Part shown: in pieces, positions 183 to 36,148 of the stretch
How the letters are laid out: each line of letters starts with the position of its first letter
Position numbering within the stretch: the stretch's first letter is position 1
Source of the DNA: Sphaerochaetaceae bacterium
GTDB lineage: Bacteria; Spirochaetota; Spirochaetia; Sphaerochaetales; Sphaerochaetaceae
Assembly: GCA_028691695.1 (NCBI GenBank)
Contig: JAQUYU010000001.1
Span: forward strand, 1-54,414
Length of the DNA: 54,414 nucleotides
Direction of reading: 5' to 3'
Made by a program: the position numbers and the translations under genes
Notes under the pieces: generated by a model
What the model saw: only the letters and a program-made list of their open reading frames with translations
Database searches by the model: none
Told to the model about the DNA's origin: nothing

Positions 183-845
183 TTAGCCGTGGACAAAACC
201 AAGCCATGCCATTCCTATCAGATTCTTGCCAGATAAGGAAAGAGCATCCATTGCAGAGAACATGGTTGTTCCTGTAGTGCAGATATCATCAATGAGTATT
301 ATGTTCTTCTCGCAGCAGTCCGAAATTTCCTTTGAAATTGAGAACATCTTGTCCATTTCATTGATCCGGTCCTTGCGGGAAAGGCTTTTCTGCTCAATGT
401 CCGCCTTGCGTTTCAGGGCGGGTGTCCAAGGAAGCCCGATCTTCCGTGCAATGAGCTTCATCTGGTCAAACCCTCTTCGCTTCAAGCCGCTTGCGCTTGC
501 AGGTACAGGAACGATCCTGACACCTCCTTCCAGATGAAGGCTTTCAATGTGATAGCGAAAGACCTCTGCAACTGCGGGAATGCCGCGCTTGAAACCCGAG
601 AACTTTATGTCCTCAATGATTTTCCTGGAAATGCCTTCATAAGGGCTGATGATGAAGATCTTACTAAGCGGATGCGAAGAGCAGAAACGGCAACGATGAT
701 CTTCGAACGGAACAAGGCTGTAGCACTCAGGGCAGCGCTTGAAAGCCTTGTCATAGAACTGATTGCTTATCTTTTCCCAGCAGCTTGGGCACAAGGCATG
801 TCCATCGGAAAACTCATTGCATAAAACACATCGGCTCAGAAGCAT
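183..845 (-). CDS. comF: ComF family protein (double zinc-ribbon N-terminus plus phosphoribosyltransferase domain)
   Basis: 220 aa ORF. CxxC...CxxC and CxxC...CxxC pairs lie near the N-terminus (CVLCNEF..CPSCWEK; CPECYS..CRFCSS). A PRTase PRPP loop lies near the C-terminus (IILIDDICTTGTT). The start overlaps the mutS stop by 10 nt. Confidence 0.75.
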   Translation of the reverse strand: MLLSRCVLCNEFSDGHALCPSCWEKISNQFYDKAFKRCPECYSLVPFEDHRCRFCSSHPLSKIFIISPYEGISRKIIEDIKFSGFKRGIPAVAEVFRYHIESLHLEGGVRIVPVPASASGLKRRGFDQMKLIARKIGLPWTPALKRKADIEQKSLSRKDRINEMDKMFSISKEISDCCEKNIILIDDICTTGTTMFSAMDALSLSGKNLIGMAWLGFVHG

Positions 846-3421: not shown

Positions 3422-3430
3422 TTTCCGCCT

Positions 3431-5971
3431 CTAGATCAAGCTGGTAGAAATTGCAAGGACAAGCTTCGTGCCTCCGAAAAGGCTGCCGTTGTCCCATGCG
3501 AATCCAGCGCTCTTATCAACATTGAAAGTCGCATCCTTTACAATGTAAAGGCCAAGCGGGAAACCTGCGATCTTGAGCTTCACGCCAGCACCGCCGGCAA
3601 AGTACCATCCAAGATTGTTCCATGTTGCATTCTCCAATGTCTTGCTTCCAGCAGTAGCAGTAGTGAACAGCTCGAAATTAAGAACATCCCGTACTATTGG
3701 GTAGGAAACCTCTACAGAGTTGTCCCATAGCATCGAGAAGCCGTAGGTAACATCAAAGCCACGTGCGATAGTCATTCCATCGATGTAGAGCATCTCGTAT
3801 TTCGTTGCACCTTCCGAAGCAGCTTTCCAGCTCCAGACGCTATCCTTTCTGGAGAACTGAGGAAGCATCATCGAGAAAGTCGATGAAACGCTCAGGACAC
3901 AATTATTGGTTACGTTCTCTTTGTTCGTGATCCCGAAGAGCTTGATGTATCCAGCAGCAGAGCTTACAGACTTGATATAGTTCGAAAGCCCGCCGAGCAG
4001 ACCTCCTGCATATGTGAATGTCTGGCTCAGAACGTAGCCCTTTGTCGTATAGTAGACGAGGTCTCGCCCATCCCACTGGAATCCAAGCGAAAGCTTGTTC
4101 GAGAACTGCCATCTCTGTCCGTATTTGAAGATAAGCTCTTCAAATGGATTGTATTTGGCTTTGTCGTAATAGGCACGGTTCAATCCGATAGAAAGGCCTG
4201 ACGAGAACCCTAGACGTCCAGGCTGGAATACAAAAGTATATCCTGTTGTATAGCCGAGGCTGAATGATAGCAGATTGTACTTCATCAGATAATTTGAATC
4301 AGGAGATGCAAAATCCGCTGCCTTGTAGGCTTCATAGCTTGAATAGCCAAGCGGATAAGCATAAGTATCGGCTTTTCCGTCATCCCTCTTGGATCCTAGA
4401 CCGACTTGATAATCATCATCTATTGATGATCTGGAAAAAGACAACGCGATCTTGTTGGACCATCTCTTATTGCCGAACCAGTCGTCACCCAAAGAAAGCT
4501 CTACAGACTGGGTGTCAGGAGAAAGCGTAGTGCTCACCGCAAGGTCACGGCCGGTGCCTGCAAGGTTGCCGTCGTTCCATTTGAGGAAGCCGGAAACAGG
4601 GAATCCTGAGACATTGCCTCCGAATGTGGCGCCGAACTGGATGTCCATCTGCTTGCCTTCGGTAAGGTCAAATTCTACAATAACATCCTTTCCGTTCGGG
4701 TCAGTATCAAGCTTGTAAGAAAGGTTTGTCAGAAGACCGGTATTGTAAAGATTCTGATAGCTGGTAATAAGATCTGCCTTGGAGAACACCTGCCCTTCCT
4801 TGAGCTGAACTTCACGCTTGAATACATACTCCTTGGTCTTTTCAAGCCCGTTGAACACGATCTTCGAAACTGAAGCCTGACCGTTCTCGACGAGCGAAAG
4901 CGTATACTTGACTTCAAGATTCTGGTCGTCACGCTGCTCGTTGAGACTCGGTGACATATAGATATATCCATCATTGTAATACAGGTCCGTGATTGACGTG
5001 ATAACTGAAGACAGTGTTTCAAGATTGTCAACAGATCCTGGTTCCATGGTAACCAAAGCATCTATCTCATCATCGGAGAATACAGCATTGCCTGTCACAT
5101 CAAGCCCGCCGAACTTCCATTGCAGCCCTTCATCTATTACGAAGACAACCTTGATTTCCTGATAGTCCTTTGGTTTCTTGCCTTCGTCCGGTTCGATGAC
5201 TTCATACCTTATGTCTGTTACAAGAGCATCGATGAACCCGTTTTTCTGGTAATAGCCGACAATGGATTTTGAATCCTGTTCTGTAGTGGATTTGTCAAGA
5301 TAGCCGGCGTTGAACAAGGATTTGACCTTTGATGAAACCTGAGCGTTGAGAACCGTAGCCTTAGCAAATGAATTGCCTTCGAAAGCAATCTCCACTACCC
5401 GCTGCTGGACACCTTCGGTTATCTCGAAGGAAAGCGAAACGGTATTTGCTGCCTGATCCTCCGTATAGGAAGGAATCACATCAACAGTCTCGAATCCTTT
5501 CTTCTTATATACGGCTGAAATCTCACTCACCGGAAGATTGAGCTTTGAAGAAATCGTCGCATCGAAGAAACTGCCTGAAGCAACGGATTTGATACCATCC
5601 TGAATATCCTTAGTCTTGACTTTCGAGTTGCCAGTGAAGGTTATTGAGGAGACCGTTGGTATTTCATGGAAAGTGAAATTCACGGAAATATTGCCCGAAT
5701 CAGCAATGAAATCCGATGCTATGTCAATGTATGAAACGCCTTCGATATCGTAGAGCTTTCCCACGAGTTCAAGGAAAAGATCGTCAGTGTACTGCTTTCC
5801 GATATACGAAAAAATCGCATCATCCACCGTTGTGCTTGAAATATGAACAAGACCGTCGTATTTGATCTCCTGAAGGATCTTTCCGGTCATATCATCAGTT
5901 GCTGCAGCTGCAGAGAACGAAGCGAATATCAAGACAATTGAAAGAATTGCCAGTATTTTTCTTTTATTCAT
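3431..5971 (-). CDS. bamA: Outer membrane protein assembly factor BamA (POTRA repeats plus C-terminal beta-barrel)
   Basis: 846 aa with a cleavable signal peptide (MNKRKILAILSIVLIFASFSAAAA). The N-terminal half has POTRA-like repeats and the C-terminal half is rich in Gly and aromatic residues, as in Omp85 barrels. It sits directly downstream of a TamB-like gene. Confidence 0.8.
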   Translation of the reverse strand: MNKRKILAILSIVLIFASFSAAAATDDMTGKILQEIKYDGLVHISSTTVDDAIFSYIGKQYTDDLFLELVGKLYDIEGVSYIDIASDFIADSGNISVNFTFHEIPTVSSITFTGNSKVKTKDIQDGIKSVASGSFFDATISSKLNLPVSEISAVYKKKGFETVDVIPSYTEDQAANTVSLSFEITEGVQQRVVEIAFEGNSFAKATVLNAQVSSKVKSLFNAGYLDKSTTEQDSKSIVGYYQKNGFIDALVTDIRYEVIEPDEGKKPKDYQEIKVVFVIDEGLQWKFGGLDVTGNAVFSDDEIDALVTMEPGSVDNLETLSSVITSITDLYYNDGYIYMSPSLNEQRDDQNLEVKYTLSLVENGQASVSKIVFNGLEKTKEYVFKREVQLKEGQVFSKADLITSYQNLYNTGLLTNLSYKLDTDPNGKDVIVEFDLTEGKQMDIQFGATFGGNVSGFPVSGFLKWNDGNLAGTGRDLAVSTTLSPDTQSVELSLGDDWFGNKRWSNKIALSFSRSSIDDDYQVGLGSKRDDGKADTYAYPLGYSSYEAYKAADFASPDSNYLMKYNLLSFSLGYTTGYTFVFQPGRLGFSSGLSIGLNRAYYDKAKYNPFEELIFKYGQRWQFSNKLSLGFQWDGRDLVYYTTKGYVLSQTFTYAGGLLGGLSNYIKSVSSAAGYIKLFGITNKENVTNNCVLSVSSTFSMMLPQFSRKDSVWSWKAASEGATKYEMLYIDGMTIARGFDVTYGFSMLWDNSVEVSYPIVRDVLNFELFTTATAGSKTLENATWNNLGWYFAGGAGVKLKIAGFPLGLYIVKDATFNVDKSAGFAWDNGSLFGGTKLVLAISTSLI

Positions 5972-5996: not shown

Positions 5997-8900
5997 TCAA
6001 AACTGAATGCTCTTGGTTACACTGAATCCCATAGTATCGAAAAGATTGAAAACGGACAACTCTTCAGGCTGAGCGAAGATTGTGAAAGTCGCAAGCGGGT
6101 TGTCCCAGTCAACGCTTACTTCAAGATCAAGCTTCAGGTCATTTGAAATGAAGCCTCCTCCGCTTGAATCAGCAGCAAGGCTTATCGTGGTCTGGAAGAA
6201 GATATCCTGTGCAAGGTACTTTCCAGCATAGATGCTTGTTCCATTGAGGTACTTGGACATCGGCGAAAGATCAGAGTTGAAGACACTTCCTGGAAGTGCA
6301 TCAATCACAATATTCTGAAGCAAATTGGTTCTGATGGAGAAAATATCCAATCCCAGCGAGTCCCTTATGATGTTCGTAAGCCCGAGGTTCGCCGCTCCTG
6401 TCTGGATCAATCCGAGCTTTCCTACTGCTTCTGCAGCCGCAACAGTCACTGATGCAATGGATGAAAGGCTCATCGAAGCAGTGTTGAAAACCGAATCTGG
6501 AAGGATGCTTTCGCCGAGCATCTGCAGTATCTGATCTTCAGGAAGCGACGGAATACTCGTGAAATGAGGCTCGATATTCGTCAGTGAAGAATTCTGGAGA
6601 TTCAGATAGATATCGACCTTGTTGCCGCTGCTGTCATAGTCCCGCATCTTTGCCCTGAGGTCAATCGAAATGTTCAAATCTCCTGTCTGAGAGATGAGAC
6701 CCTCTCCAAAAGATATCTTTCCTTCAGTGATGAGGAAGTCCTTCTGGAAATAATAGATCTCCCCGCCTCGAAGAGAAATCGAACCTGAAGCGTCGAGCTT
6801 CAATGTTGTCGAATTGAAATCAATGGAAATCCTGTCATTCTCGTTTATCTTCAGATTCAGGATTGGATTGCTCGTATTAGGATAGCAGACTGAATTGTTT
6901 TTTAGGAAATCTATATCGAATGTGAAATCAGAAAGACCCTTGACCTTCGAGAACCATTTGGGTACATCCTTGTCAGTCAGGTCGAAGTCAATCAGCATGT
7001 TCGAAAGCGTCAAAGGACCGCTGAGATAGTCGGTGCCGTCATATCCTATATGAACCGAGCCACCTACATCCGCTGTTGCATCAAGACTTACCTCAAGAAC
7101 TGGAACCCAAAGAGGAATCGTTACAGAATCGGGAAGCTTTACATACACATCATATCCAAATGGAGCAATGTTCATCCAAGCAGAAATCGTACCATAAGAC
7201 CGCTGGAATGTCTTTTTATTGAAGATTTCCACCCTTGTATCAGCAAGGAAGCACTCTGTTCCTGCCAAGGCAATGGATGCATTGCTTGCTGTGAATACAG
7301 TATCAGGCACCCAGAAAACAGACATCGAGAACTTGTCAGCATAAAGCATTCCAGTCAGCTGAATGTCATCAATGCTGCCGGTTGCAATCAACGAACCGGT
7401 GATGACCCCGTCTTCCACAGGTTCCGTTGAAAGATCGGCAAGGTCGTTTATAATAACCATAGGAATGTTCAAGGACGAAACTTCAATGTCAAGGTTTTCC
7501 AGATCCGCAATGCCCTGTGCAGTAATTCCAAGCCCCCAGATCGGGTCGAGATCCAGACTGAACTGATTGCTGTCCAGCTCGTATGATGCATCGATGTACT
7601 GACCTTTGGCAAATGCCTTGTTCTTCTCCAGCTTGAGATCCAATTCATCAGGCTTGAAGCTGGAATCGCCAAGGCTGAATTGCTCGATTGAGAACTTTGC
7701 AGAAAGGTTATCAAGCAGCGCTGAAGAATCAAAGGAATAATCCAGCAGTGAAAGCGGTGATTTCTTCACCGAATCAAAGAAACTGCCAACTTCCTTTGCA
7801 ATGGAAGAAGCATCTGCATCCAGCACCCCTTTGAAAATGTATGTCTTGTCCCCTGGATAGAATGAAACTGAATGCGAAGCCTCAATATCAGAAATCACAT
7901 GGCCAGTTGCAGGATTGAAGCTGATGGATGAGCTTCCGAAATCAATCCCTCCGAACGAAGAATCGACATTGTGTATCAGATAAGAATCCTTTCCGAGAAT
8001 CAGATCAGCAGCTGCATAGTCATCTCCCTTGCCATAGGAGAAATGCCCATAGGCTGGCTGAGCTTTGCGTCCAAGCATCGAAGCATCGACGATTCCCGTT
8101 CCGCCGAACCGTTCCAGATTGAACTTCTTTGCCTCAACCAGATACCGTCCCTCAACAAATGAAGCCTGGATTGACTCTCCTTCTGCACTTGAAAGATCAA
8201 CAGCAGCAGATGAGGATTCATCGAAGAGCTTGTCCAGACTCTGGTAATCCGCCCATGCATTGCCGGTAAACAGATCATCAAGATCATTTCCGAACCGTAT
8301 CCCGTTCAAAGTGAAACGCTGCGTGTCGGCATGAAGATCGAATCCAAGCATCTTGAACTTGTCTCCTGACAGAGAAAAATCATTAATGTCGAGGTTGAAC
8401 AAGTCGCTGTCCGTTCTGTACAGCCCTGATAGGTTCAGGTTCAGATTCCAGTTATTACCTCCGGGAAGCCTCAGCTGGAAATCATCAAGAACGGCATCAA
8501 TGCTGAGCCTGCTGTCCTGATACTTAGCAGAAAGCTCCAGTCCTTGTGTCGAAGCACTGAACGCAAGGCTGGCAAAATCAAGAGAGGCCTTCACATCATA
8601 TGAAGCATTGCTGTACTTAAGAGCAGAATCAATCGTGAAAACAGAATCCTCACCTATTCCCAGCGTCCCTGAGAAGTCAAAATCCGGATTCTGAGCCAGC
8701 AGCAGAGTGAATCCATATGAGCGGCTTTGCAGTGAAGAAATCTGAAGAGATGCTAGCTCGGAAGCATCAATTGCTTTCTTCAATGAAAGAGTGCCATCGA
8801 TTCCGATAGCATCAGTGCTTATGCTTCCGTCGTAATCCAAGCGGTACTGATCGCTAGCCAGGATCAGCTTGTCCACAGAAAGGCGGTTCCCATCTGCTGC

Positions 8901-10763
8901 GCCATTGAAAGAAACCGAGAAGTTGAGCTTCTCCTTGCCAAGGTGGAAATTCCTTACAGCGAGATCAAAGAAAGAAGCGGCTTCAAGCGGATCCGTCCCT
9001 CTCAATTCGCCATTGAAGTACAGATCGGCTTCTGTATCATCCGAAATCATCGCCCTTGCTTCTTCTGGAAGCATCGAATAGAAACGGCTGTATCTAGATG
9101 GCTTGAAATCCTCAAGTCTTCCGGAAGCCTTTCCCGTCATGGTTCCAAGATCCAAATCTGCCTGGATCCTCACCGCATCGCCGATGCTTGCAGACACAGA
9201 AGCCTTGGCATTCTCAAGAGGATTCTTCGAGCATGAGGCACTCAGGCTTATAGCATCTGGAAGCGACTCAAGATCGAGACTGCTGATTTCGGCATTGCCC
9301 GAAAACTCCTCTTTGGAACTGAAGCTGAAGTCACAGAGAAGGTTCATCGAGAACTTTCCTGCAAACTTGCTGTCTGCCTCCCCAGAGACCGACGCAAAAG
9401 CATCTCCTCTGAGTACCTGTGGAGTAATATAATAATCAAGGGAAAGCTCTGAAACCTGAGCCAACGGTACTCCGAACCTATCAAGTCCAAGAGCTGAAAG
9501 CCCATAGAGGGAAGCATTTCCTGTGAACTTAAGGCTGTCCAGAACGGCATCACCTTTTGCTGAAACCGAAGCAAGAGTCACGGACTGCTCTTTATACCTG
9601 CCGTATACATCGGATGCAGTCACCGTATAATTCAAGCTTCCAGAAGGCATTCCATCTGATGCAATAATCAAGCTCCCTGCACTGGCATCCCATCCAGAAC
9701 CCGAAGCATTCAATGATGACGCCGAAGCACTGAGAACCGCATTGCCATCAGAAAGCCCATAGCTTCCCGAAACAGAAATCTCACCTGCTTCTGCCTTGAT
9801 GCCCTGCACTTTCCCTTGAGCTTTCTTTGCATATACCAAGCCTGAAGCAGAACCGGCATCGTCCTTCTTTAGAATGTACTTATCAATCAATGCACCGGCT
9901 TGGGCTTCGGCATAAAGACCATCTATGCTGAAAAGCCCATAAGTCAGGCGTTCTGAAGATAGAGAAAGCTTCATGCTGCTATCAAGTGCAACTTTGAGGC
10001 CCTTTGCATTCAGATCCATGCCTTCAAGCTGTCCTGCATTGATGTTGGCCGAGATGAATTCAAGCCCGGGTTTCAGAGACAGCGCGCTTTCCAGTTCCGA
10101 CGCCTTGAGATGAATTCCCTGCAAATTGACTTCTGCGCTTCCATCCACGATCCAGAGCCTGAGTCCAGTCCTGCTGATTAAAGAGGAAATGAGCTTTCCT
10201 TTCTTATCCGAACCATCGATTTCATTCCGATTCCTTTCGTCTAGTGCCATCTTATAGCTGGTCTTGAGGTCAGAGGAATACTGATCCAGGTCCATCACGT
10301 AGCTTTCATCTGACTGGCTTTCTTTGGCCAAACCCTGATTCTTCACCGCATCAAGTAGTTTCTGAAGCTGCTCATCATCGAGGGTTATCACAGGCGAATT
10401 GAGCCGGATATCGTAAACATCTTCTCCAGTGAATATGTGCTTCACGAGGCTCTGAAGAGATGCAGACAGCTCTAGGCTGCTCGCATTGAGAATGCTCTGG
10501 CCATCCACATCAAGTTCCACATCATGGAAAACAAGCTTCTGGAAGAACATCCTGTCCATTGAACCGAACTTGAATGAAAGCGGATCGGGCAGATCAATCT
10601 TTTCAAGCAATGCCTCTACGCTGTTCTGGGCAAATTGAGGGAATGGAAACACAATGACACAGGCAGCAATCAGAACTGCAAGAAGAACTGAGACTATTAC
10701 GGCAGTCGGTGTCACTCGGAATTTCATCGACTGCATTATACCAATTGAAACGATTGTCCTCAA
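5997..10763 (-). CDS. tamB: TamB-like translocation and assembly module protein (N-terminal membrane anchor, long beta-rich body, DUF490-like C-terminus)
   Basis: 1588 aa. A single N-terminal hydrophobic anchor (VIVSVLLAVLIAACVIVFPF) is followed by a very long Ser/Asp/Gly/Leu-rich region. The C-terminus ends in ...MGFSVTKSIQF. The gene lies 25 nt upstream of bamA. The true start may be an internal Met (10736 or 10727). Confidence 0.7.
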   Translation of the reverse strand: MRTIVSIGIMQSMKFRVTPTAVIVSVLLAVLIAACVIVFPFPQFAQNSVEALLEKIDLPDPLSFKFGSMDRMFFQKLVFHDVELDVDGQSILNASSLELSASLQSLVKHIFTGEDVYDIRLNSPVITLDDEQLQKLLDAVKNQGLAKESQSDESYVMDLDQYSSDLKTSYKMALDERNRNEIDGSDKKGKLISSLISRTGLRLWIVDGSAEVNLQGIHLKASELESALSLKPGLEFISANINAGQLEGMDLNAKGLKVALDSSMKLSLSSERLTYGLFSIDGLYAEAQAGALIDKYILKKDDAGSASGLVYAKKAQGKVQGIKAEAGEISVSGSYGLSDGNAVLSASASSLNASGSGWDASAGSLIIASDGMPSGSLNYTVTASDVYGRYKEQSVTLASVSAKGDAVLDSLKFTGNASLYGLSALGLDRFGVPLAQVSELSLDYYITPQVLRGDAFASVSGEADSKFAGKFSMNLLCDFSFSSKEEFSGNAEISSLDLESLPDAISLSASCSKNPLENAKASVSASIGDAVRIQADLDLGTMTGKASGRLEDFKPSRYSRFYSMLPEEARAMISDDTEADLYFNGELRGTDPLEAASFFDLAVRNFHLGKEKLNFSVSFNGAADGNRLSVDKLILASDQYRLDYDGSISTDAIGIDGTLSLKKAIDASELASLQISSLQSRSYGFTLLLAQNPDFDFSGTLGIGEDSVFTIDSALKYSNASYDVKASLDFASLAFSASTQGLELSAKYQDSRLSIDAVLDDFQLRLPGGNNWNLNLNLSGLYRTDSDLFNLDINDFSLSGDKFKMLGFDLHADTQRFTLNGIRFGNDLDDLFTGNAWADYQSLDKLFDESSSAAVDLSSAEGESIQASFVEGRYLVEAKKFNLERFGGTGIVDASMLGRKAQPAYGHFSYGKGDDYAAADLILGKDSYLIHNVDSSFGGIDFGSSSISFNPATGHVISDIEASHSVSFYPGDKTYIFKGVLDADASSIAKEVGSFFDSVKKSPLSLLDYSFDSSALLDNLSAKFSIEQFSLGDSSFKPDELDLKLEKNKAFAKGQYIDASYELDSNQFSLDLDPIWGLGITAQGIADLENLDIEVSSLNIPMVIINDLADLSTEPVEDGVITGSLIATGSIDDIQLTGMLYADKFSMSVFWVPDTVFTASNASIALAGTECFLADTRVEIFNKKTFQRSYGTISAWMNIAPFGYDVYVKLPDSVTIPLWVPVLEVSLDATADVGGSVHIGYDGTDYLSGPLTLSNMLIDFDLTDKDVPKWFSKVKGLSDFTFDIDFLKNNSVCYPNTSNPILNLKINENDRISIDFNSTTLKLDASGSISLRGGEIYYFQKDFLITEGKISFGEGLISQTGDLNISIDLRAKMRDYDSSGNKVDIYLNLQNSSLTNIEPHFTSIPSLPEDQILQMLGESILPDSVFNTASMSLSSIASVTVAAAEAVGKLGLIQTGAANLGLTNIIRDSLGLDIFSIRTNLLQNIVIDALPGSVFNSDLSPMSKYLNGTSIYAGKYLAQDIFFQTTISLAADSSGGGFISNDLKLDLEVSVDWDNPLATFTIFAQPEELSVFNLFDTMGFSVTKSIQF

Positions 10764-10891: not shown

Positions 10892-12091
10892 TCAGCAGAT
10901 GCGGACGACCCAGTTGTGGGTATCGGCAACCTTGCCTGTCTGAGTCCCGTAGATAGTATCATAAAGACGCTGAGCAAGAGGACCGACCTGATTGTTGTTC
11001 ACAAGGAAATCCTTGTCTTTGTAGCAGAGCGTGCCGATCGGAGAAATAACAGCCGCCGTGCCTGTTGCAAAGACCTCGGCAAGAGTCCCGTTCTCAGAAG
11101 CAGCGCAGACATCATCGATGGACAGAGGACGCTCTGACACCTTGATGCCCCACTCCTTCAGAAGGGTAAGAACTGTGTTGCGTGTGATTCCTGGGAGTAT
11201 TGTACCTCCAAGGGGAGCAGTGATGACCTCATCGCCGATCTTGAAGAAAGCATTGGAAGTGCCGATCTCCTCAACAAGCTTGTGATCGCGTGCATCAAGC
11301 CACAGTACATCCTTGCAGTTGTACTTGAGAGCCTTCTGGGAAGCCTTCATTCCACCTGCGTAGTTGCCGCCGACCTTTGCAAAGCCCGTCCCGCCCTGTG
11401 CTGCACGGATGAACTCATCCTCGACATAGATCCTTGTGGCGGAAAGCTTTCCCATGTTTCCGGCATAATATGGACCGGATGGGCACAGAATAATCATGAA
11501 GCGGTAATGCTTGGCAGGAAGAACACTGAACGAAACCTCATCTGACAGGATGAAAGGCCTGATGTACAGCGAAGTGCCTGGCTTGCTCGGAACCCAGTCG
11601 ATGTCGGCAAGCACTGTTGCCTTCACAGCCGAAACAAAAAGCTCCTCGTCAATAGGAGGCATGCACATGCGCTCGTTGGTCCGGTTCAGGCGCGCAGCAT
11701 TCATGTAAGGTCTGAAAAGCTGGACGTGACCATCTGCGGTCTTGTAAGCCTTCATGCCCTCGAACATCATCTGAGCGTAATGGAGGACACAGGAGGCTGG
11801 ATCGATGCTGATGTTGCCATAAGGAATGATCCTTCCATCGTGCCATCCCTTGCCCTCGTCATACTCCATGACGAACATGTGGTCAGTGAAATTCTGACCG
11901 AATACAAGATGATCCTCATCCGGCTTCTGCTTTGGATTAGTCGTCCTTGTTGTCCTCAGCGTCCCGCTTATGCCTGTTCTCCTCAGCGTCCTCAGACTCC
12001 AGTTCCTCGTCCCCAGCGTCCTTGTTGTCCTCAGCGTCCCGCTTATGCCTGTTCTCCTCAGCGTCCCCAGATTCCAGTTCACCGTCCCCAC
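10892..12091 (-). CDS. ilvE: Branched-chain amino acid aminotransferase (class IV). The start codon is uncertain.
   Basis: Motifs present are NPKQKPDEDHLVFGQNFTDHMF, HYAQMMFEGMKAY, GGTGFAKVGGNYAGG and LPGITR. In this frame the only ATG/GTG/TTG codons upstream of the conserved N-terminus are GTG 12091 and GTG 12082. Both lie inside a 75 bp tandem repeat, which gives a roughly 50 aa repeat-encoded extension. The next ATG (11878) would delete conserved residues. Confidence 0.85.
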   Translation of the reverse strand: MGTVNWNLGTLRRTGISGTLRTTRTLGTRNWSLRTLRRTGISGTLRTTRTTNPKQKPDEDHLVFGQNFTDHMFVMEYDEGKGWHDGRIIPYGNISIDPASCVLHYAQMMFEGMKAYKTADGHVQLFRPYMNAARLNRTNERMCMPPIDEELFVSAVKATVLADIDWVPSKPGTSLYIRPFILSDEVSFSVLPAKHYRFMIILCPSGPYYAGNMGKLSATRIYVEDEFIRAAQGGTGFAKVGGNYAGGMKASQKALKYNCKDVLWLDARDHKLVEEIGTSNAFFKIGDEVITAPLGGTILPGITRNTVLTLLKEWGIKVSERPLSIDDVCAASENGTLAEVFATGTAAVISPIGTLCYKDKDFLVNNNQVGPLAQRLYDTIYGTQTGKVADTHNWVVRIC

Positions 12092-12119
12092 GCTCTTTCA
12101 AAAATGCCCGAAGAATCAT
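11937..12119 (-). CDS. Candidate 60 aa acidic repeat ORF (MILRAFLKERGDGELESGDAEENRHKRDAEDNKDAGDEELESEDAEENRHKRDAEDNKDD)
   Basis: It starts at ATG 12119 and stops at TAA 11939..11937. It reads through the 2 x 75 bp repeat in a different frame from the ilvE extension. This frame gives a natural-looking acidic sequence, whereas the ilvE frame gives GTLRRTGISGTLRTTRT. Only a weak SD (GGTGG) is present. This is the C-terminal part of the 264 aa track ORF. Confidence 0.3.
   Translation of the reverse strand: MILRAFLKERGDGELESGDAEENRHKRDAEDNKDAGDEELESEDAEENRHKRDAEDNKDD
11944..12093. repeat. Tandem direct repeat, 2 x 75 bp
   Basis: tccttgttgtcctcagcgtcccgcttatgcctgttctcctcagcgtcc... begins at 11944 and again at 12019 (offset 75). 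A few mismatches occur in the last third. An internal sub-repeat is cctcagcgtcc. The minus strand is purine-rich here. Confidence 0.9.
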
Positions 12120-12155
12120 GCAAACACCACCACTTGACGCACGCCAAGGATTCCA

Positions 12156-12665
12156 ATGACCACAAACACACCTCACTCTGAGGGCTAAGAGGACCAAGAT
12201 GACAACCGGGACGCAGAAGGCCAAACACCTCACCCTGAGGACCAAGAGGACGCCAATGACAAACAGGACGCAAAAGATCACACCCATCACCCTAAGGACT
12301 AAGAGGACCAAGAGGACGCAAATGACAACCATGACGCAGAGGACGCCAACGACAAACGGGACGCAGAAGACCACACCCCTCACCCTGAGGACCAAGAGGA
12401 CAAAGAGGACACCAACGACAAACGGGACGCAGAAGACCACACCCCTCACCCTGAGGACCAAGAGGACAAAGAGGACGCAAATGACAACCATGACGCAGAG
12501 GACGCCAACGACAAACGGGACGCAGAAGACCACACCCCTCACCCTGAGGACCAAGAGGACAAAGAGGACACCAACGACAAACGGGACGCAGAAGACCACA
12601 CCCCTCACCCTGAGGACCAAGAGGACAAAGAGGACGCCAATGACCGAGCAAGCACCTCCGCGTAA
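12156..12665 (+). pseudogene. Candidate disrupted acidic-repeat gene, (EDQEDKEDTNDKRDAEDHTPHP)n, with two in-frame TAA codons
   Basis: In plus frame 3, ATG 12156 gives MTTNTPHSEG, then TAA (12186), then 37 codons, then TAA (12300). A 120-codon open stretch follows at 12303..12662, ending at TAA 12663. Aligned to the repeat consensus, both internal TAA codons sit where the other units have CAA. Confidence 0.3.
12189..12662. repeat. T-depleted tandem repeat array (66 nt and 93 nt units forming a 159 bp higher-order repeat)
   Basis: gacgcaaatgacaacc recurs at 12315 and 12474 (offset 159). The 66 nt unit is gaggaccaagaggacaaagaggacaccaacgacaaacgggacgcagaagaccacacccctcaccct. By hand count there are 14 T in the 360 nt from 12301 to 12660 on the plus strand. 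Confidence 0.9.
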
Positions 12666-12731
12666 CAAACGCCAAGGGTTTTCATGCGTGCTTATTGAAA
12701 GAAGGCGAAGAAAAACAGTATCATCAGACAC

Positions 12732-13367
12732 ATGGAAAGAAATGAGATTCTAAAGAACTTTTATGTAATAGAAGGCCTTGACGGTGCGGGAACAACCACT
12801 CAGCTCAGGATGATAGTCCAGCAGCTGCAGGAATGCGGAAAGAAAGCATTCTTGACATTCGAACCGACAACCTCTGAAATTGGACTTCTGATCAAGAGAA
12901 TTCTGAAAGGCGAAGCCGAAGCAACCGGGCTTGCATTGGCCTATCTGTATGCAGCAGACCGGGAGAATCACGTAAACCACCCTGAGACGGGAATAAGAGC
13001 ACACCTTGAGAATGGAGAAACAGTCATCAGCGACCGATACTTCTTCTCTTCGCTTGCTTACCAGACCATGGCATCCTCGTTCGATAAGATCTGGTCGCTC
13101 AACTGCGGCTTTCCATACCCGGAAGCAGTTATATTCATCGACACTCCGGTATCGGAATGCATCAAGAGGATAGAGAACAGAGGCGAGAAGAAAGAGATCT
13201 TCGAAAAGCAGAACCTTCTTTCTGCTGTCAAGGAAAACTATGAGAAAGCCTTCAAGATGATGCCGGAAGAGGTAAAGCTGTACAGATTCGACGGCACAGC
13301 TCCCAAAGAGCAGATTCAGAATGAAATCATGGACCAGGTGTTCGGAAAAACTACTTCAGGAAAGTAG
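12732..13367 (+). CDS. tmk: Thymidylate kinase
   Basis: 211 aa. The P-loop is YVIEGLDGAGTTTQ, followed by the DRY-like segment (SDRYFFSSLAYQ) and a lid region. Confidence 0.9.
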   Translation: MERNEILKNFYVIEGLDGAGTTTQLRMIVQQLQECGKKAFLTFEPTTSEIGLLIKRILKGEAEATGLALAYLYAADRENHVNHPETGIRAHLENGETVISDRYFFSSLAYQTMASSFDKIWSLNCGFPYPEAVIFIDTPVSECIKRIENRGEKKEIFEKQNLLSAVKENYEKAFKMMPEEVKLYRFDGTAPKEQIQNEIMDQVFGKTTSGK

Positions 13368-25099: not shown

Positions 25100-25120
25100 T
25101 GTTTATACACACTATAAACA
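25100..25120. promoter_or_regulatory. Perfect 8 bp inverted repeat (candidate YtrA/GntR operator)
   Basis: TGTTTATA-cacac-TATAAACA lies 3 nt upstream of the GntR ATG. It overlaps a minus-strand candidate promoter with -35 TTGACA (25140-25135), an 18 nt spacer and -10 TATAGT (25116-25111). Confidence 0.5.
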
Positions 25121-25319
25121 GATTGGCCTTTCATTGTCAACACACATTTTCTGAATCAATGCAAAGAAGAATCATCAAGTTTCCTTCCATCATTTAACAT
25201 ACCGAGTGGCTTGGACGACAAATTGAACCAAAGAATTATCTGTGTTCTATGGCTCTTTCTGCTAGAAGAGAAATCAATTTGAAAAAGTATTTCTTGAATT
25301 GAAGTCAGGATTATTCTGT

Positions 25320-26369
25320 TCAGTTGAAGTCAAACAGAATCAGATCATCACTTGTACCCGTAATCTTCATATGCTGATAACTGGCCAATCCAGTAGTTTC
25401 AATTGCTTCCTGTGCTTTGTCTGCAACCTGCTGCAAAGAAACTTTGCCAAGGAAGCTTGCAGGAATTTCAGAACCCAAGGACTGTGAATCCGTATCATAC
25501 CCCAGAGCATCAAGAACTCCGTAAGTGAAAAGCCCATGACCAAGAGTTCCAAATTCATATGACTGTTCATAAGTCTTTGAAGCTGAAAGGATGTAGAAAT
25601 CACTTTCCTGCTGGATCTTCGAATCAGAGAAAAGCAAATCAGAAAAGACATCAATGCTGTTATTGGAAGTGCTGTATGTAGTTGCATCAGTAGTGATGTT
25701 GTTCTCGGCAATCACAGAGCCGCTGAAGCAGAAGTCGCCAAAAATGCATTTCTTTCCTGGAAAGAGCTTCATCACATTATATAAATCAGAGGCAGGCCAG
25801 TAGTCAATAATGAAATGCACATTAAAACTTTCAAGCCCAATTCCACTCTGAGCCTGATACTGTGCTGTTTCGGAATACTGAACCTCTGATTGAAGCGGCG
25901 TGGTTTTATAAGCAAAGTTTTCGCTGTATCCATGGCTGCTGCAGAAGAAAATTAGAGTATCGTTCTCAGAAGCCATATTGGAAAATTCCCTGATTTTCGC
26001 TTCCACGTTCACCACAGATGGGAAGTTTGCAGACGAAGCTGAAAGCCTTGCACCAGAACGATTGAAATCGGAGAATTCAAACTGAACAAGCTCTCTGCCA
26101 GCCCTGGCACAGAGCTCAGAGATGCAATCGGCGAAGAATTCCGAGTCGCTGAAAGTGTAAGTCAATGCAGAAACATATGAACCATCAAGCAGTTGAGTAC
26201 CTAGAATAGTATTACCATTGATGTCTTTCTTTCCATAGCGAATTCCAATGTTTATAAGATAAACCTTTCCCGGTTCCTGCTGTGTATAGAAAAGCTCGCA
26301 GCTTGAAAGAAAAAAGATTGAAGCAAGTACTATAATTGATAACAGGAAGGTCTTGATTCTTTTCATCAT
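25320..26369 (-). CDS. Caspase-like (clan CD, peptidase C14/C13-like) lipoprotein with an intact His/Cys dyad
   Basis: 349 aa. It has a signal peptide with a lipobox (FFLSSC), a His motif LIFFCSSHGYS and a Cys motif FGDFCFSGS (D-x-C-x-S-G). The downstream caspase-domain signature is ILSAS..EQSYEFGTLGHGLFTYGVLDALGYD. Confidence 0.65.
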   Translation of the reverse strand: MMKRIKTFLLSIIVLASIFFLSSCELFYTQQEPGKVYLINIGIRYGKKDINGNTILGTQLLDGSYVSALTYTFSDSEFFADCISELCARAGRELVQFEFSDFNRSGARLSASSANFPSVVNVEAKIREFSNMASENDTLIFFCSSHGYSENFAYKTTPLQSEVQYSETAQYQAQSGIGLESFNVHFIIDYWPASDLYNVMKLFPGKKCIFGDFCFSGSVIAENNITTDATTYSTSNNSIDVFSDLLFSDSKIQQESDFYILSASKTYEQSYEFGTLGHGLFTYGVLDALGYDTDSQSLGSEIPASFLGKVSLQQVADKAQEAIETTGLASYQHMKITGTSDDLILFDFN

Positions 26370-26932
26370 AGCCCCTCCTGTATCCAGTAGCCCTTGTAAC
26401 GGACCTTAAAACCGCAGCTGACGCTTACTGCAACTATATCCTTGCGATACGAGACTTCAATGGGAGCCAGCACGGAAAAGTTTACATATGCAGTCTGGGA
26501 GAACAGGAATTCGTTGTACAGGATGCCTGATACAGAACCGAACTTCACATCGGTGCCTGAATTATTGACTGCAATCTCGGCACCAAGACCGAGGCAGTAG
26601 ACATCAGAGATGAAATAAGAGAAGTAGACTCTGGCTCCATAGCTGATGAAGCCCTTTAGCTGAGTCTGATTGAAAGCCAAAGAAGGCGTGACATAGCCCA
26701 AAAAGAATGCACCGCCTGCCTGAAATCTATTGATTGAAAAAGAAAGCGCATCAAGATAGATCTTAGCCTCACCTTGCGTTCTTATCGGGACTTCAGACTC
26801 CAGGTAGGCAGCCGTTGGAATGGCACCATAATAGCCGCCCTGGATTTCAATTGCTGGAGCCCAGCCTGAAAAACTGGCAAACGCTGCTGAGGCGCATAGA
26901 ATCATCATAAAGCAGAAAAACGCTTTCTTCAT
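26366..26932 (-). CDS. Small outer-membrane beta-barrel protein (putative)
   Basis: 188 aa with a signal peptide (MKKAFFCFMMILCASAAFA). The mature part has alternating hydrophobic and aromatic beta-strand patterns (YFSYFISDVY, GLGAEIAV, VSVSCGFKVRY). It has a 4 nt ATGA overlap with the downstream caspase-like gene. Confidence 0.5.
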   Translation of the reverse strand: MKKAFFCFMMILCASAAFASFSGWAPAIEIQGGYYGAIPTAAYLESEVPIRTQGEAKIYLDALSFSINRFQAGGAFFLGYVTPSLAFNQTQLKGFISYGARVYFSYFISDVYCLGLGAEIAVNNSGTDVKFGSVSGILYNEFLFSQTAYVNFSVLAPIEVSYRKDIVAVSVSCGFKVRYKGYWIQEGL

Positions 26933-27042
26933 GAACCAAAGATACCACAGTTTCTACTGATTTTCACAGAGACATTGCTGTTATTCAGATGAAATACCAT
27001 GTATTTCAGGGCATTCATCAGAATAACTAGTGAAATCAACTA

Positions 27043-27990
27043 CTAGAACGTGAAAAGAATAGTATCAATAAGGCTGCTTGACATCTTAGGAGTCATATCA
27101 CCGTCCTTGCAGGCCTTTGAGACAAACTCATAAAGAGAGCTCATTGTAAGCTTTCCGTTCTTCATTGCTGGTGGAACTTCTGTAACTGTTTCAGTTTCCT
27201 GGTCATAACCCAGTGCCTCAAGCAGTGCAGCAGTAAAGGCACTATGCTCGACATTGCCAAGAGCCTTGGTTCCTGCCTCTTCTTCATAACGTCTTTCGGA
27301 AGCTAGAATCTGAACCTTGGAGGAATCAACACCGTCCCCGCCGGCAGCAAGCTTGCTTTCAAGATCCTCCGACGAAACTTCAAAGTCAGTAGAATCCTCT
27401 TCAATGCTCTTGCTTCCCACCAGTGCTCCGCTATGGGCGCTGTCTGCAATCAGGACGATGTTTCCATTAACTTCATTTAGAGAAGAAACAAGGTCATCTC
27501 CATAGGCAACTATGTTGTTGTCTGCATCCAGAACTGCAAACTCAGTGCTGTAATCAACATCGGCGGAGAATCTGGCATCCTTGGCATCGTAGTAGACACC
27601 CTTGCCGTTGTAATCAACCATATCGTACTGGGAATAACCCTTCCCGCTTAGATAAACAATCGAAATATCATTTTCAGAACTTTCATCGGAAAGCTTTGCT
27701 ATCGCATTGGCTATATTCTCAGAAGTTGCTGGAACAGCATCAATACGATCTGTATCCGCCACTACAGTGACGTCCAGGCTTACACCGCTCTGGTCAGCAA
27801 GGCTCTTCATGGCTTTGGAAAAGTTCACAGCATCATTGCTGCAGGCTTCAGAGGAATCTGAGTCAACACCGATTGCTAGAATCCTCATCTCACCATTCTC
27901 AGGCTCACCCATAGTGGTTTCACAAGAACATATACCCAGAATCATCAGAAGCATTAGAACTGATGCAATTGCATAAGATAATCTTTTCAT
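27043..27990 (-). CDS. Caspase-like lipoprotein paralog with both catalytic residues substituted (predicted pseudo-protease)
   Basis: 315 aa with a lipobox (ILGICSC). It aligns with the 349 aa paralog. SENDISIVYLSGKGYS aligns with SENDTLIFFCSSHGYS (His to Lys). IADSAHSGA aligns with FGDFCFSGS (Cys to Ala). The shared downstream signature is ILASERRYEEEAG..VEHSAFTAALLEALGYD. Confidence 0.6.
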   Translation of the reverse strand: MKRLSYAIASVLMLLMILGICSCETTMGEPENGEMRILAIGVDSDSSEACSNDAVNFSKAMKSLADQSGVSLDVTVVADTDRIDAVPATSENIANAIAKLSDESSENDISIVYLSGKGYSQYDMVDYNGKGVYYDAKDARFSADVDYSTEFAVLDADNNIVAYGDDLVSSLNEVNGNIVLIADSAHSGALVGSKSIEEDSTDFEVSSEDLESKLAAGGDGVDSSKVQILASERRYEEEAGTKALGNVEHSAFTAALLEALGYDQETETVTEVPPAMKNGKLTMSSLYEFVSKACKDGDMTPKMSSSLIDTILFTF

Positions 27991-28088
27991 TAGTAACTAC
28001 CCCTGAGATTATAATAAGCAAACAGAAACCAAACGACAATAATATTGCATATACATATTGCACATTTTGTGTGTTTTCTTCAAAGCAG

Positions 28089-28118
28089 AAAAAAACATCG
28101 GCTCAAATTGAACCGATG
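28089..28118 (-). terminator. Rho-independent terminator after typA
   Basis: The minus strand reads CATCGG..(loop)..CCGATG followed by a run of 7 U (plus-strand A-run 28089-28095). It lies about 28 nt downstream of the typA stop. Confidence 0.55.
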
Positions 28119-28145
28119 CTGATTATTGAGAATCAATCGTTTTTT

Positions 28146-34965: not shown

Positions 34966-35043
34966 TTAAATGACAATTTCAGCAAGAAAGGCACCGAAAA
35001 TACAGATCACTCCAAACAGGTAATAAAGTTTCTGGGCTTTCAT
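34966..35043 (-). CDS. Candidate 25 aa hydrophobic small protein (MKAQKLYYLFGVICIFGAFLAEIVI)
   Basis: It runs from ATG 35043 to the TAA stop at 34968-34966. A GAGGAG sequence lies 6 nt upstream of the ATG. A single predicted TM-length hydrophobic stretch is present. The ORF lies in an otherwise non-coding AT-rich gap and is too short for the ORF track. Confidence 0.4.
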   Translation of the reverse strand: MKAQKLYYLFGVICIFGAFLAEIVI

Positions 35044-35469
35044 ATCATGCTCCTCGGCAAGATAGTTTCTCTTGCTTACATCTAACCTTACCACAGAGAA
35101 GCAACCAAGTCAAGTTTATTTTGTTATACTGTAAATAGTTATTATATGTCAAAAGACATATCTCCACCCTTTTTCTTCTGGCTTTTTATCAAATTTAGGT
35201 AATTTATATAATCCTTTTTTCCTTCAGAAGAGTGCATCGAACACCACAGCAGTTTTCTATTTATTTGAATCTTAATCAATTAGACATCAATTTACAAAAA
35301 ATAAGTCTTGACGTGATTTATTCATGTCATATGTCATTATGAAAATGAAAACCCATAACGCTCTTCCTCTGTTTTCAATTAACTCAGATCCGACGATTCA
35401 AGAAATGACCACCAACTGTCATAAGCCACAATTCTGCAATTTTATTCAGTTCTTCGTCTTAGATTTTTC

Positions 35470-35502
35470 AAAAAAAACAGCACCCTGAAACCCAGGATGC
35501 TG
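35470..35502 (-). terminator. Rho-independent terminator after the phosphoribosyltransferase gene
   Basis: The minus strand reads CAGCAUCCUG-loop-CAGGGUGCUG, a 10 bp stem with one G:U pair. It is followed by 8 U (plus-strand A-run 35470-35477). Confidence 0.7.
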
Positions 35503-35527
35503 AATATCAAAAAAAAGGATTTATAGA

Positions 35528-36148
35528 TTATTTGCAGTCACCACGGATTTCATGAAGAATGGAACGGACTTCAGGATCCTTGTACACTTCATCAATCTCC
35601 TCTGAAGTAAGACCGACGAATTCGTGACAGAGATAGTGAATCCAGACTTCCTGATCCTCGGATTCAAGGACATGCTTGCGGCAGTAGTAATCCGGCTGGA
35701 CTGGGAGAGGCGGAATCTTCTTGTAAAGTGGAACTTTGTAATCAAATACCGCAACTTTGATATCATCACGGGGAATACCCTTGTTCAGAATGATATCTGT
35801 AAGAGCATTTACTGTCTTTCCAGTATCGAAGATGTCATCAACAATCAGAACCTTGTCACCGCTTCGGAGATAGTCAGGAGAATATGTCCAGCCATCAACC
35901 ATGACCCGGGTCTGGCAACGGATATCCGAGTAGCTTCTTGCAACGACAGCAGCATAGAACACTGGCCGCTTGCACTCACGGGCTCTGACAATCTTGTAGT
36001 ACTCGCTCATCACATTGCCCATGTAGACACCGCCTCTAAGCGAAACGTAGATGACATCAGGTACGAAATGATCGACTGAATACATTCGATGACAAAGCTT
36101 CAGAGCCTCGTCCCTAATAGTTTCCGGAGATACGAATTCCTTTTTCAT
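35528..36148 (-). CDS. Purine phosphoribosyltransferase family protein (Hpt/Gpt-like)
   Basis: 206 aa. The PRPP-binding loop is VLIVDDIFDTGKTV and SLRGGVYMG lies upstream. The C-terminal extension is longer than in classical Hpt. Confidence 0.7.
   Translation of the reverse strand: MKKEFVSPETIRDEALKLCHRMYSVDHFVPDVIYVSLRGGVYMGNVMSEYYKIVRARECKRPVFYAAVVARSYSDIRCQTRVMVDGWTYSPDYLRSGDKVLIVDDIFDTGKTVNALTDIILNKGIPRDDIKVAVFDYKVPLYKKIPPLPVQPDYYCRKHVLESEDQEVWIHYLCHEFVGLTSEEIDEVYKDPEVRSILHEIRGDCK

Follow-up and report, generated by a model that had tools for sequence, protein, structure and literature searches.

Why would a spirochaete carry a gene for what looks like a small outer-membrane barrel between the genes for two predicted lipoproteins of caspase-like fold, one of which has lost its catalytic residues, and do the three genes belong together? 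The question is raised by a stretch of 54,414 nucleotides from a Sphaerochaetaceae bacterium (assembly GCA_028691695.1, contig JAQUYU010000001.1, positions 1 to 54,414), which is referred to here as the window. Three minus-strand genes are at issue: gene A (27043..27990), for a 315-residue lipoprotein that is a dead paralogue of metacaspase-like type; gene B (26366..26932), for a protein of 188 residues that bears a type I signal peptide and is predicted to form an 8-stranded outer-membrane beta-barrel; and gene C (25320..26369), for a 349-residue metacaspase-like lipoprotein whose catalytic dyad is intact. A first-pass annotation, made from the letters alone, had treated the three as one unit. 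Comparison with related loci leads to a different division, in which the conserved unit is the barrel together with the active lipoprotein of peptidase family C14, and the dead paralogue is an optional extra.

An active and a dead lineage within peptidase family C14

The proteins encoded by A and C align over their full length in BLASTP with 24% identity (E 7e-18). Protein A matches the Pfam Peptidase_C14 model (PF00656) with 26.9 bits at a cut-off of 21.4 and also Arabidopsis metacaspase-4 (AtMC4; 6w8r at E 2.7e-6, with 6w8s matched as well), in an alignment that places its YLSGKG over HYSGHG and its DSAHSG over DSCHSG. Searched alone, protein C has no significant sequence match in Pfam, NCBIfam or the PDB, and its assignment to C14 follows from its paralogy to A and from its structure model. 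That model, made with AlphaFold2 (AF2), has a predicted template-modelling score (pTM) of 0.77 and is matched by Foldseek to metacaspases (7qp0 at E 2.6e-9, Yca1 4f6o), to GSU0716 (3bij) and to MALT1; its top 50 matches are C14 structures only, from Candida, yeast and plant metacaspases to GSU0716, MALT1 and caspases. A and C are members of peptidase family C14, clan CD. The clan CD layout that the first-pass annotation had recognized by eye in both outer proteins is thus confirmed, for A by PF00656 and AtMC4 and for C by paralogy and Foldseek. The other clan CD families C11, C13 and C25 were pointed to by neither Pfam nor Foldseek.

The dyad is kept in C, as His146 (codon 25932-25934) and Cys214 (25728-25730) downstream of the lipobox Cys24 (26298-26300). 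In A, where the lipobox cysteine is Cys23 (27922-27924), the catalytic His is replaced by Lys117 (27640-27642) and the catalytic Cys by Ala185 (27436-27438); all six codons were checked. When 13 sequences are aligned, the His column holds H in 7/7 active-type proteins and K, Q or S in 6/6 A-type proteins, and the Cys column holds C in the active type and A or D in the A-type, so that alignments and codons both bear out the earlier claim that the 349-residue protein retains the dyad and the 315-residue protein has lost both residues. A near-identical copy of A (P0005, 99% identity, from independent contigs) has the same Lys and Ala, which makes sequencing error an untenable source of the substitutions. 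It had also to be considered that a dyad survives in A at shifted positions, and the alignment of A with its orthologues contains none. Mature A has only two cysteines, C50 and C293, neither of them within DSAHSG, and C50 is unconserved among the orthologues; where the orthologues of A have a cysteine immediately ahead of the catalytic position (DCDHSG), A has none (DSAHSG), and the catalytic His is lost in A and in all of its orthologues. A is a pseudo-enzyme of the C14 fold family, and no peptidase.

Both proteins keep the pair of aspartates that lines the S1 pocket, one in the 'xND' motif and the other two positions ahead of the catalytic Cys; in C these are Asp75 and Asp212, and their counterparts in A are Asp53 and Asp183. 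Metacaspases with two acidic residues of this kind prefer Arg or Lys, and their retention in C therefore predicts cutting after Arg or Lys; to judge from the same residues, A may still be able to bind an Arg or Lys side chain. The segment that follows the catalytic-Cys position (residues 219-253 in C and about 190-206 in A), in the place of the p20-p10 linker, is of low confidence in the C model. It carries motifs that are conserved within each subfamily (ENN[IV][TS].D...Y and FSDLLF in the C-type, GSKSIE.D.TDF in the A-type) and, in both types, no conserved Arg or Lys that could serve as a mark of autoprocessing.

Word-based searches returned few close homologues for each of A, B and C. When 1.84 billion representatives were searched with a profile, the number of C14 relatives depended on the threshold, with 13,139 at E<=1e-3, 1,383 at E<=1e-10 and 123 at E<=1e-30; the family comprises at least 123 clusters when clustered at 50% identity. 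Nearly all of the best 150 profile matches are 300-350 residues long and are aligned from residue 1. The family alignment consists of 163 sequences in total, among which His and Cys are both kept in 148, and the S1-pocket residues corresponding to Asp75 and Asp212 in 98% and 99%, respectively, dead proteins included. A cysteine occupies the lipobox column in 154 of the 163 sequences; of these, 152 have S, G or A at -1 and 135 have L, F, I or V at -3, and behind the cysteine there is Glu at +2 in 128 (Asp in 9) and Leu at +3 in 120. Named members are listed at NCBI as "caspase family protein" and come from Sphaerochaeta, Sphaerochaetaceae or Spirochaetales assemblies, and a scan of GTDB species representatives with the A-type alignment gave one match, in a Sphaerochaetaceae assembly (L006 below). 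Within C14 the family amounts to a lipoprotein subfamily of considerable size, and its named members, as sampled, are all spirochaetal.

Within this family the dead proteins form a clade in BLAST relationships, made up of the A-type and of P0022 and P0055 and set apart from the C-type proteins, with P0069 as its nearest active relative. Its replacements at the His and Cys positions are varied: Lys/Ala in A, Gln/Asp and Ser/Asp in the orthologues of A, Leu/Ser in P0022 and Pro/Glu in P0055. As judged from these relationships, A is no recent duplicate of C and comes from an older, separate dead clade, and the spread of replacements suggests that catalysis was lost once, long ago, and that the former catalytic positions then drifted.

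The barrel and its pairing with the active gene

The AF2 model of B has eight strands, with a mean predicted local distance difference test score (pLDDT) of 75 and a pTM of 0.66, and Foldseek matches it to NspA (1p4t, E 8e-6), Ail, the OmpA transmembrane domain, OmpX and PagL. The model of B is thus an outer-membrane barrel of eight strands and of the NspA/Ail/OmpX/OmpA type, in agreement with the small-barrel character that had been proposed for the middle protein. By sequence the protein has no match at E<=1 in Pfam or NCBIfam, curated barrel families included (OmpA_membrane, Ail_Lom, OMP_b-brl, OmpW); the B family profile has no match among PDB sequences; a scan of 185,579 species representatives with the barrel alignment found no relatives; and a metagenome scan with the barrel profile gave a single match, on a contig of 1.1 kb (L007). 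The motifs YL..VP.RTQ, TPSL...LKGF and YRKD are conserved in B. Elsewhere in the window, a BamA gene (four POTRA domains and Omp85, 3431-5971) and a TamB-like gene for 1588 residues (5997-10763) adjoin mutS (836-3421), and their presence indicates a diderm that is able to assemble barrels.

All three proteins carry export signals, which were read by rule from the sequence. Judged by the lipobox pattern [LVI][ASTVI][GAS]C, the lipoboxes are LGICSC before E in A (ICSC-E, with a relaxed -2 position) and FFLSSC before E in C (LSSC-E), and the type I signal peptide of B ends AFA-S. The lipoprotein signals noticed earlier on the outer proteins and the signal peptide on the middle one are therefore upheld, as is the view that this is an envelope module and no cytoplasmic effector; A and C are accordingly predicted to be lipidated and to reside in the envelope.

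Which of the genes travel together can be read from related loci. The window shares the order typA-A-B-C-ABC with L001 and L006, with a 4-nucleotide overlap of B and C. In L005 the order is typA-ASCH-B-C, with an 11-nucleotide overlap and no A. In L002 and L011 a barrel gene and two C14 genes, both of them active, precede uvrB/htrA; a barrel gene and one C14 gene precede uvrB in L012; and the overlap is again 4 nucleotides in these three. L003 and L008 have tatD, barrel, C14 and the gene for a 128-residue protein. Hence the barrel gene lies directly 5' of an active-type C14 lipoprotein gene at all nine loci with a testable upstream open reading frame (ORF), namely the window and the eight loci just described, and the pair occurs in three genomic settings (typA-...-ABC, ABC-...-uvrB/htrA and tatD-...). 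The barrels of L002, L003, L008, L011 and L012 are homologous to B, with hhalign probabilities of 95-98% and E values of 3e-8 to 5e-14. L014, whose upstream fragment of only 68 residues scores a probability of 4% against the barrel, was left out of the count, and the contigs of L007 and L013 are too short to give a gene context. Gene A accompanies the pair in one subclade only, at its typA locus (window, L001 and L006), and the A proteins of these three share only about 50% identity. The earlier claim of a three-gene unit therefore holds in part: the B-C pair is conserved at nine loci, and A is missing from the typA locus of L005 and its relatives stand alone in L004, L009 and L010.

Some of these loci have components of their own. 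In L006 a gene at 2728-3726, between A and B, encodes a 332-residue multi-pass membrane protein in which a CPBP/CAAX-protease-like motif (EELVFR ... H...N) can be discerned by eye. The conserved 128-residue protein encoded after the C14 gene in the tatD-linked version (L003 2813-3199, L008 3226-3612) has no family match; hydrophobic stretches visible by eye may make it a membrane protein, and it may be a lineage-specific component. In the tandem arrangement (L002 8001-9886, L011 403-2322), the barrel gene is followed by two C14 lipoprotein genes with His and Cys in both, of which the first has an unusual SGHA/DACE variant of the motifs.

In the window, the junction of B and C (26366..26379, minus strand) reads ...AGGAGGGGCTATGATG..., with the TGA stop of B lying within the ATGA at 26366-26369. 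A Shine-Dalgarno sequence, AGGAGG (26374-26379), stands inside the end of B and 5 nucleotides 5' of the ATG of C, and the overlap together with this internal ribosome-binding site gives the classic layout of translational coupling. The co-directional arrangement of three minus-strand genes, the 110-nucleotide gap and the ATGA overlap described by the first-pass annotation all agree with the ORF coordinates and the junction sequence. The spacer between A and B (26933..27042) was found free of terminator-like sites in the consensus scans from which all promoter and terminator calls were made. On the same strand, a terminator-like hairpin after typA (28094..28120, a 12 bp stem and a T run) forms the upstream boundary, a promoter-like TTGTCG-17-TATTAT (28011..28039), which is a consensus match only, lies 20 nucleotides 5' of gene A, and a strong promoter-like TTGACA-18-TATAGT (25111..25140, 11/12 positions) would serve the downstream GntR/ABC-transporter genes and forms the downstream boundary. 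Given the terminator after typA, the lack of one between A and B and the separate promoter of the next operon, the three genes look like one transcription unit.

The neighbouring genes in the window are typA, sir2, miaB and those of the GntR/ABC transporter, and no further copies of A or C were found within it. The region had been thought AT-richer than the housekeeping genes around it, which is partly so: the guanine-plus-cytosine (GC) content of A, B and C (0.453, 0.473 and 0.415) is below that of the whole window (0.484), and GC at third codon positions is low in A and C (0.42 each, with 0.52 in B and 0.50-0.57 in neighbouring genes), but another kilobase of the window is lower still. This is 35001-36000 (0.392), around a phosphoribosyltransferase-domain gene (35528-36148). 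Recent horizontal acquisition was considered as the source of the low GC, and the typA-adjacent synteny in L001, L005 and L006 argues against it. Farther off, in the interval that separates a class-IV aminotransferase gene from the next gene, positions 11942-12644 hold A-rich, coding-type tandem repeats with periods of 27, 57, 66, 75, 93 and 159 nucleotides (multiples of 3), matches of up to 95% and an AT skew of 0.45; the plus-strand reading is acidic and rich in Asp, Glu and His, and the ORFs of the array (11937-12731 on the minus strand, 12199-12753 on the plus strand) have no Pfam match.

Between L001 and L006 the ratio of nonsynonymous to synonymous substitution rates (dN/dS) rises from 0.20 in A through 0.29 in B to 0.36 in C; among the neighbours it is 0.17 for the ABC ATPase and 0.02 for typA. 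The value for A indicates that the gene is maintained by purifying selection, and together with intact ORFs in at least six assemblies it speaks against the decay of A into a pseudogene. B and C rank with the faster-evolving genes nearby, which is compatible with outward-facing proteins without proving that they are such.

Proposed function and competing explanations

The reading that we favour, with a probability of roughly 0.55, is that the locus encodes an envelope protease module of Sphaerochaetaceae-type spirochaetes, directed at Arg or Lys, with a barrel as its partner and a non-catalytic paralogue as an accessory. B and C would be translated in coupled fashion from one mRNA, which would yield roughly one C per B. 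C would be a lipid-anchored, metacaspase-like cysteine protease that cuts after Arg or Lys and acts in the envelope (in the periplasm or at the cell surface) and not in the cytoplasm, and B would most likely be its membrane partner, as an anchor, a scaffold or a positioning or regulating factor. A would be transcribed from the same promoter region and most likely serve that envelope process by binding without catalysis, for example as a receptor or trap for substrates or as a regulator; its role would be accessory, and not that of an obligate third subunit. The Arg/Lys specificity, a physical interaction of B with C and an interaction of A with C or with substrate are all things that we infer. 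A more specific version, in which B and C form an outer-membrane complex of one barrel and one lipoprotein that displays the protease at the surface, its C-E-L tether docked on or threaded beside the extracellular loops of B, and A serves as a surface receptor for substrate, strikes us as doubtful.

One feature of the barrel speaks for the favoured reading, within limits. Mean conservation in B is 0.63 on the side predicted to be extracellular (loops and upper parts of the strands) versus 0.54 in the periplasmic half, and the three conserved motifs of B cluster on the former; this reverses the usual pattern of outer-membrane proteins and would suit a conserved partner at the outer face, but the excess is modest and depends on an assumed standard topology and on a model with a pLDDT of 75. 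Several observations weigh against the reading or some part of it. The lumen of an 8-stranded barrel is too narrow for the export of a folded protein. The locus comparison covers about a dozen loci, mostly metagenome contigs, and the dead-type genes of L004, L009 and L010 have neither a barrel nor an active gene as neighbour (that of L009 is truncated and lies beside a recombinase), so that the link of A to the pair is weak. The main uncertainty of the proposed mechanism is location. In E. coli, Asp at +2 makes a lipoprotein avoid the Lol pathway and stay in the inner membrane, and the conserved Glu or Asp at +2 of this family fits that behaviour. It also resembles, in its near-invariance, the anchor-proximal negative charges that cause inner-membrane retention of a model lipoprotein in Borrelia (PMC2987989), and C may on this account never reach the outer membrane. 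If such a rule of retention by acidic residues applies, C would be periplasmic and tethered to the inner membrane, and B would more likely be a substrate or a regulator. The short tether between the lipid anchor of C and its first beta-strand (about 10 residues) would also suit an inner-membrane-anchored periplasmic housekeeping protease, for which the barrel might be a substrate, an inhibitor or merely a co-expressed envelope protein. We regard this account as improbable, because the strict, coupled pairing with a barrel, seen in diverged lineages, would hardly be expected unless the two were directly linked in function, and because the sorting rules of Borrelia and E. coli may not be those of Sphaerochaetaceae.

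The place of A invites two further explanations that pull in opposite directions. The first-pass annotation had suggested a partner role for the dead protein, as a regulator, decoy or heterodimer subunit, and such a role may still apply. The pseudo-caspase cFLIP regulates caspase-8, and A might similarly pair with C through a caspase-type dimer interface and switch it on or off, A, B and C then forming one obligate complex. The co-orientation of A and C in one apparent transcription unit, the preservation in A of fold and S1 pocket under purifying selection and the recurrence of the order A-B-C in L001 and L006 are what such an arrangement would lead one to expect. The idea seems to us unlikely to be right when it is set against the solitary A-type genes, the B-C pair without A at the typA locus of L005, the CPBP-like membrane protein gene that intervenes between A and B in L006, and the derivation of A and C from different old subfamilies at 24% identity, which does not resemble a co-evolving recent pair; metacaspases, moreover, are usually monomers in which the dimer edge is blocked. 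Those same solitary genes, in three unrelated neighbourhoods, can be taken further, to mean that A is independent of B and C altogether, a stand-alone non-catalytic lipoprotein (for example one that binds Arg/Lys peptides, or a structural one) that came to the typA locus of one subclade by chance. The ASCH gene in the place of A in L005 and the 110-nucleotide spacer, as compared with the tight coupling of B and C, are in keeping with this; we think it somewhat unlikely, since the three genes share an orientation, lack a terminator between A and B and are set apart together by the terminator after typA, and since their order has been kept in three genomes despite the low identity of the A proteins. 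A programmed-cell-death or anti-phage defence system with a caspase-like effector, which the generic "caspase" match of A in PADLOC (E 5e-5) and sub-threshold matches to the NCBIfam EACC1-associated caspase model (15-21 bits at a cut-off of 140) might bring to mind, can be given hardly any credence: all three proteins have export signals, PADLOC models match neither B nor C, no sensor, NTPase, gasdermin, CHAT or EACC1 partner gene is present at the locus, and the neighbours are syntenic housekeeping genes (typA, miaB, sir2).

Relation to known systems and significance

The nearest described relatives are the bacterial metacaspase-like proteins or orthocaspases (GSU0716 of Geobacter, 3bij; MaOC1 of Microcystis), which share with the present family the fold, the SxHG and DxCxSG dyad motifs, the S1-pocket pair of aspartates and a single domain of about 300 residues. 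The proteins considered here differ from them in being lipoproteins with a conserved L-x-S-C-E-L N-terminus, and their active-type genes lie directly 3' of a dedicated barrel gene, the first one translationally coupled to it; the characterised orthocaspases are cytoplasmic, or their location is unstudied. A survey of 2012 reported possible signal peptides in some metacaspases and counted 14 metacaspase operons with OmpA-domain genes, but it described no pairing with a barrel and, in spirochaetes, no operon with several metacaspase genes; it found about 16% of prokaryotic metacaspase homologues to be without the dyad (PMC3501461). Pseudo-orthocaspases have been described in detail, for SyOC of Synechocystis and for Tyr/Ser and Tyr/Asn variants (PMC6426788); they have in common with A the C14 p20 scaffold, the replacement of both catalytic residues and the retention of the specificity pocket. 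The dead proteins of the present family, by comparison, have Lys/Ala, Gln/Asp, Ser/Asp, Leu/Ser and Pro/Glu, with no Tyr/Ser or Tyr/Asn, and form an independent, spirochaetal clade of lipoprotein type, in which A is found beside an active paralogue and a barrel. With cFLIP and caspase-8 the locus shares a dead paralogue encoded along with an active caspase-fold protease, and it differs in that the subfamilies of A and C diverged long ago and dead-type genes often stand by themselves. The small barrels NspA, Ail/OmpX, PagL and the OmpA transmembrane domain resemble B in predicted fold and size, with 1p4t, 3qrc, 9fzc and 2erv as the best structural matches, but B lies outside the Pfam and NCBIfam families and has conserved loop motifs and an obligate pairing with a protease lipoprotein gene. 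Lipoproteins are known to pair with barrels in RcsF-OmpA/BamA and LptE-LptD; the dentilisin of Treponema denticola (PrtP-PrcA-PrcB) has a lipidated protease that is assisted by lipoproteins without catalytic function; and the gingipains of Porphyromonas gingivalis are envelope-anchored, Arg/Lys-specific members of clan CD. These are functional analogies without homology, and none of them joins an 8-stranded barrel to a C14 lipoprotein.

The first-pass annotation knew of no described system with this architecture, and a literature search of limited coverage found no published account of a barrel/C14 lipoprotein module; the members themselves are less novel, being already named as caspase family proteins at NCBI. 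Dyad-less homologues, pseudo-orthocaspases, multi-metacaspase and OmpA-domain operons and small 8-stranded barrels are each known separately. New are the fixed association, by translational coupling, of a C14 lipoprotein with an 8-stranded barrel of its own, the conserved C-E-L N-terminus and the lipoprotein-type dead clade.

Bacterial caspase homologues have mostly been discussed as cytoplasmic proteases of death or defence, and very few have a known role. An exported, lipid-anchored family with a private barrel points to functions other than death, in the envelope or at the surface, such as the processing of proteins, the release of nutrient peptides or the remodelling of the surface, and A and C offer a natural pair of dead and active paralogues in which the function of pseudo-metacaspases may be studied. 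If the barrel does prove to be a partner for docking or display, the pair would extend the known types of lipoprotein-barrel complex by one, in a phylum that differs from E. coli in the biology of its outer membrane.

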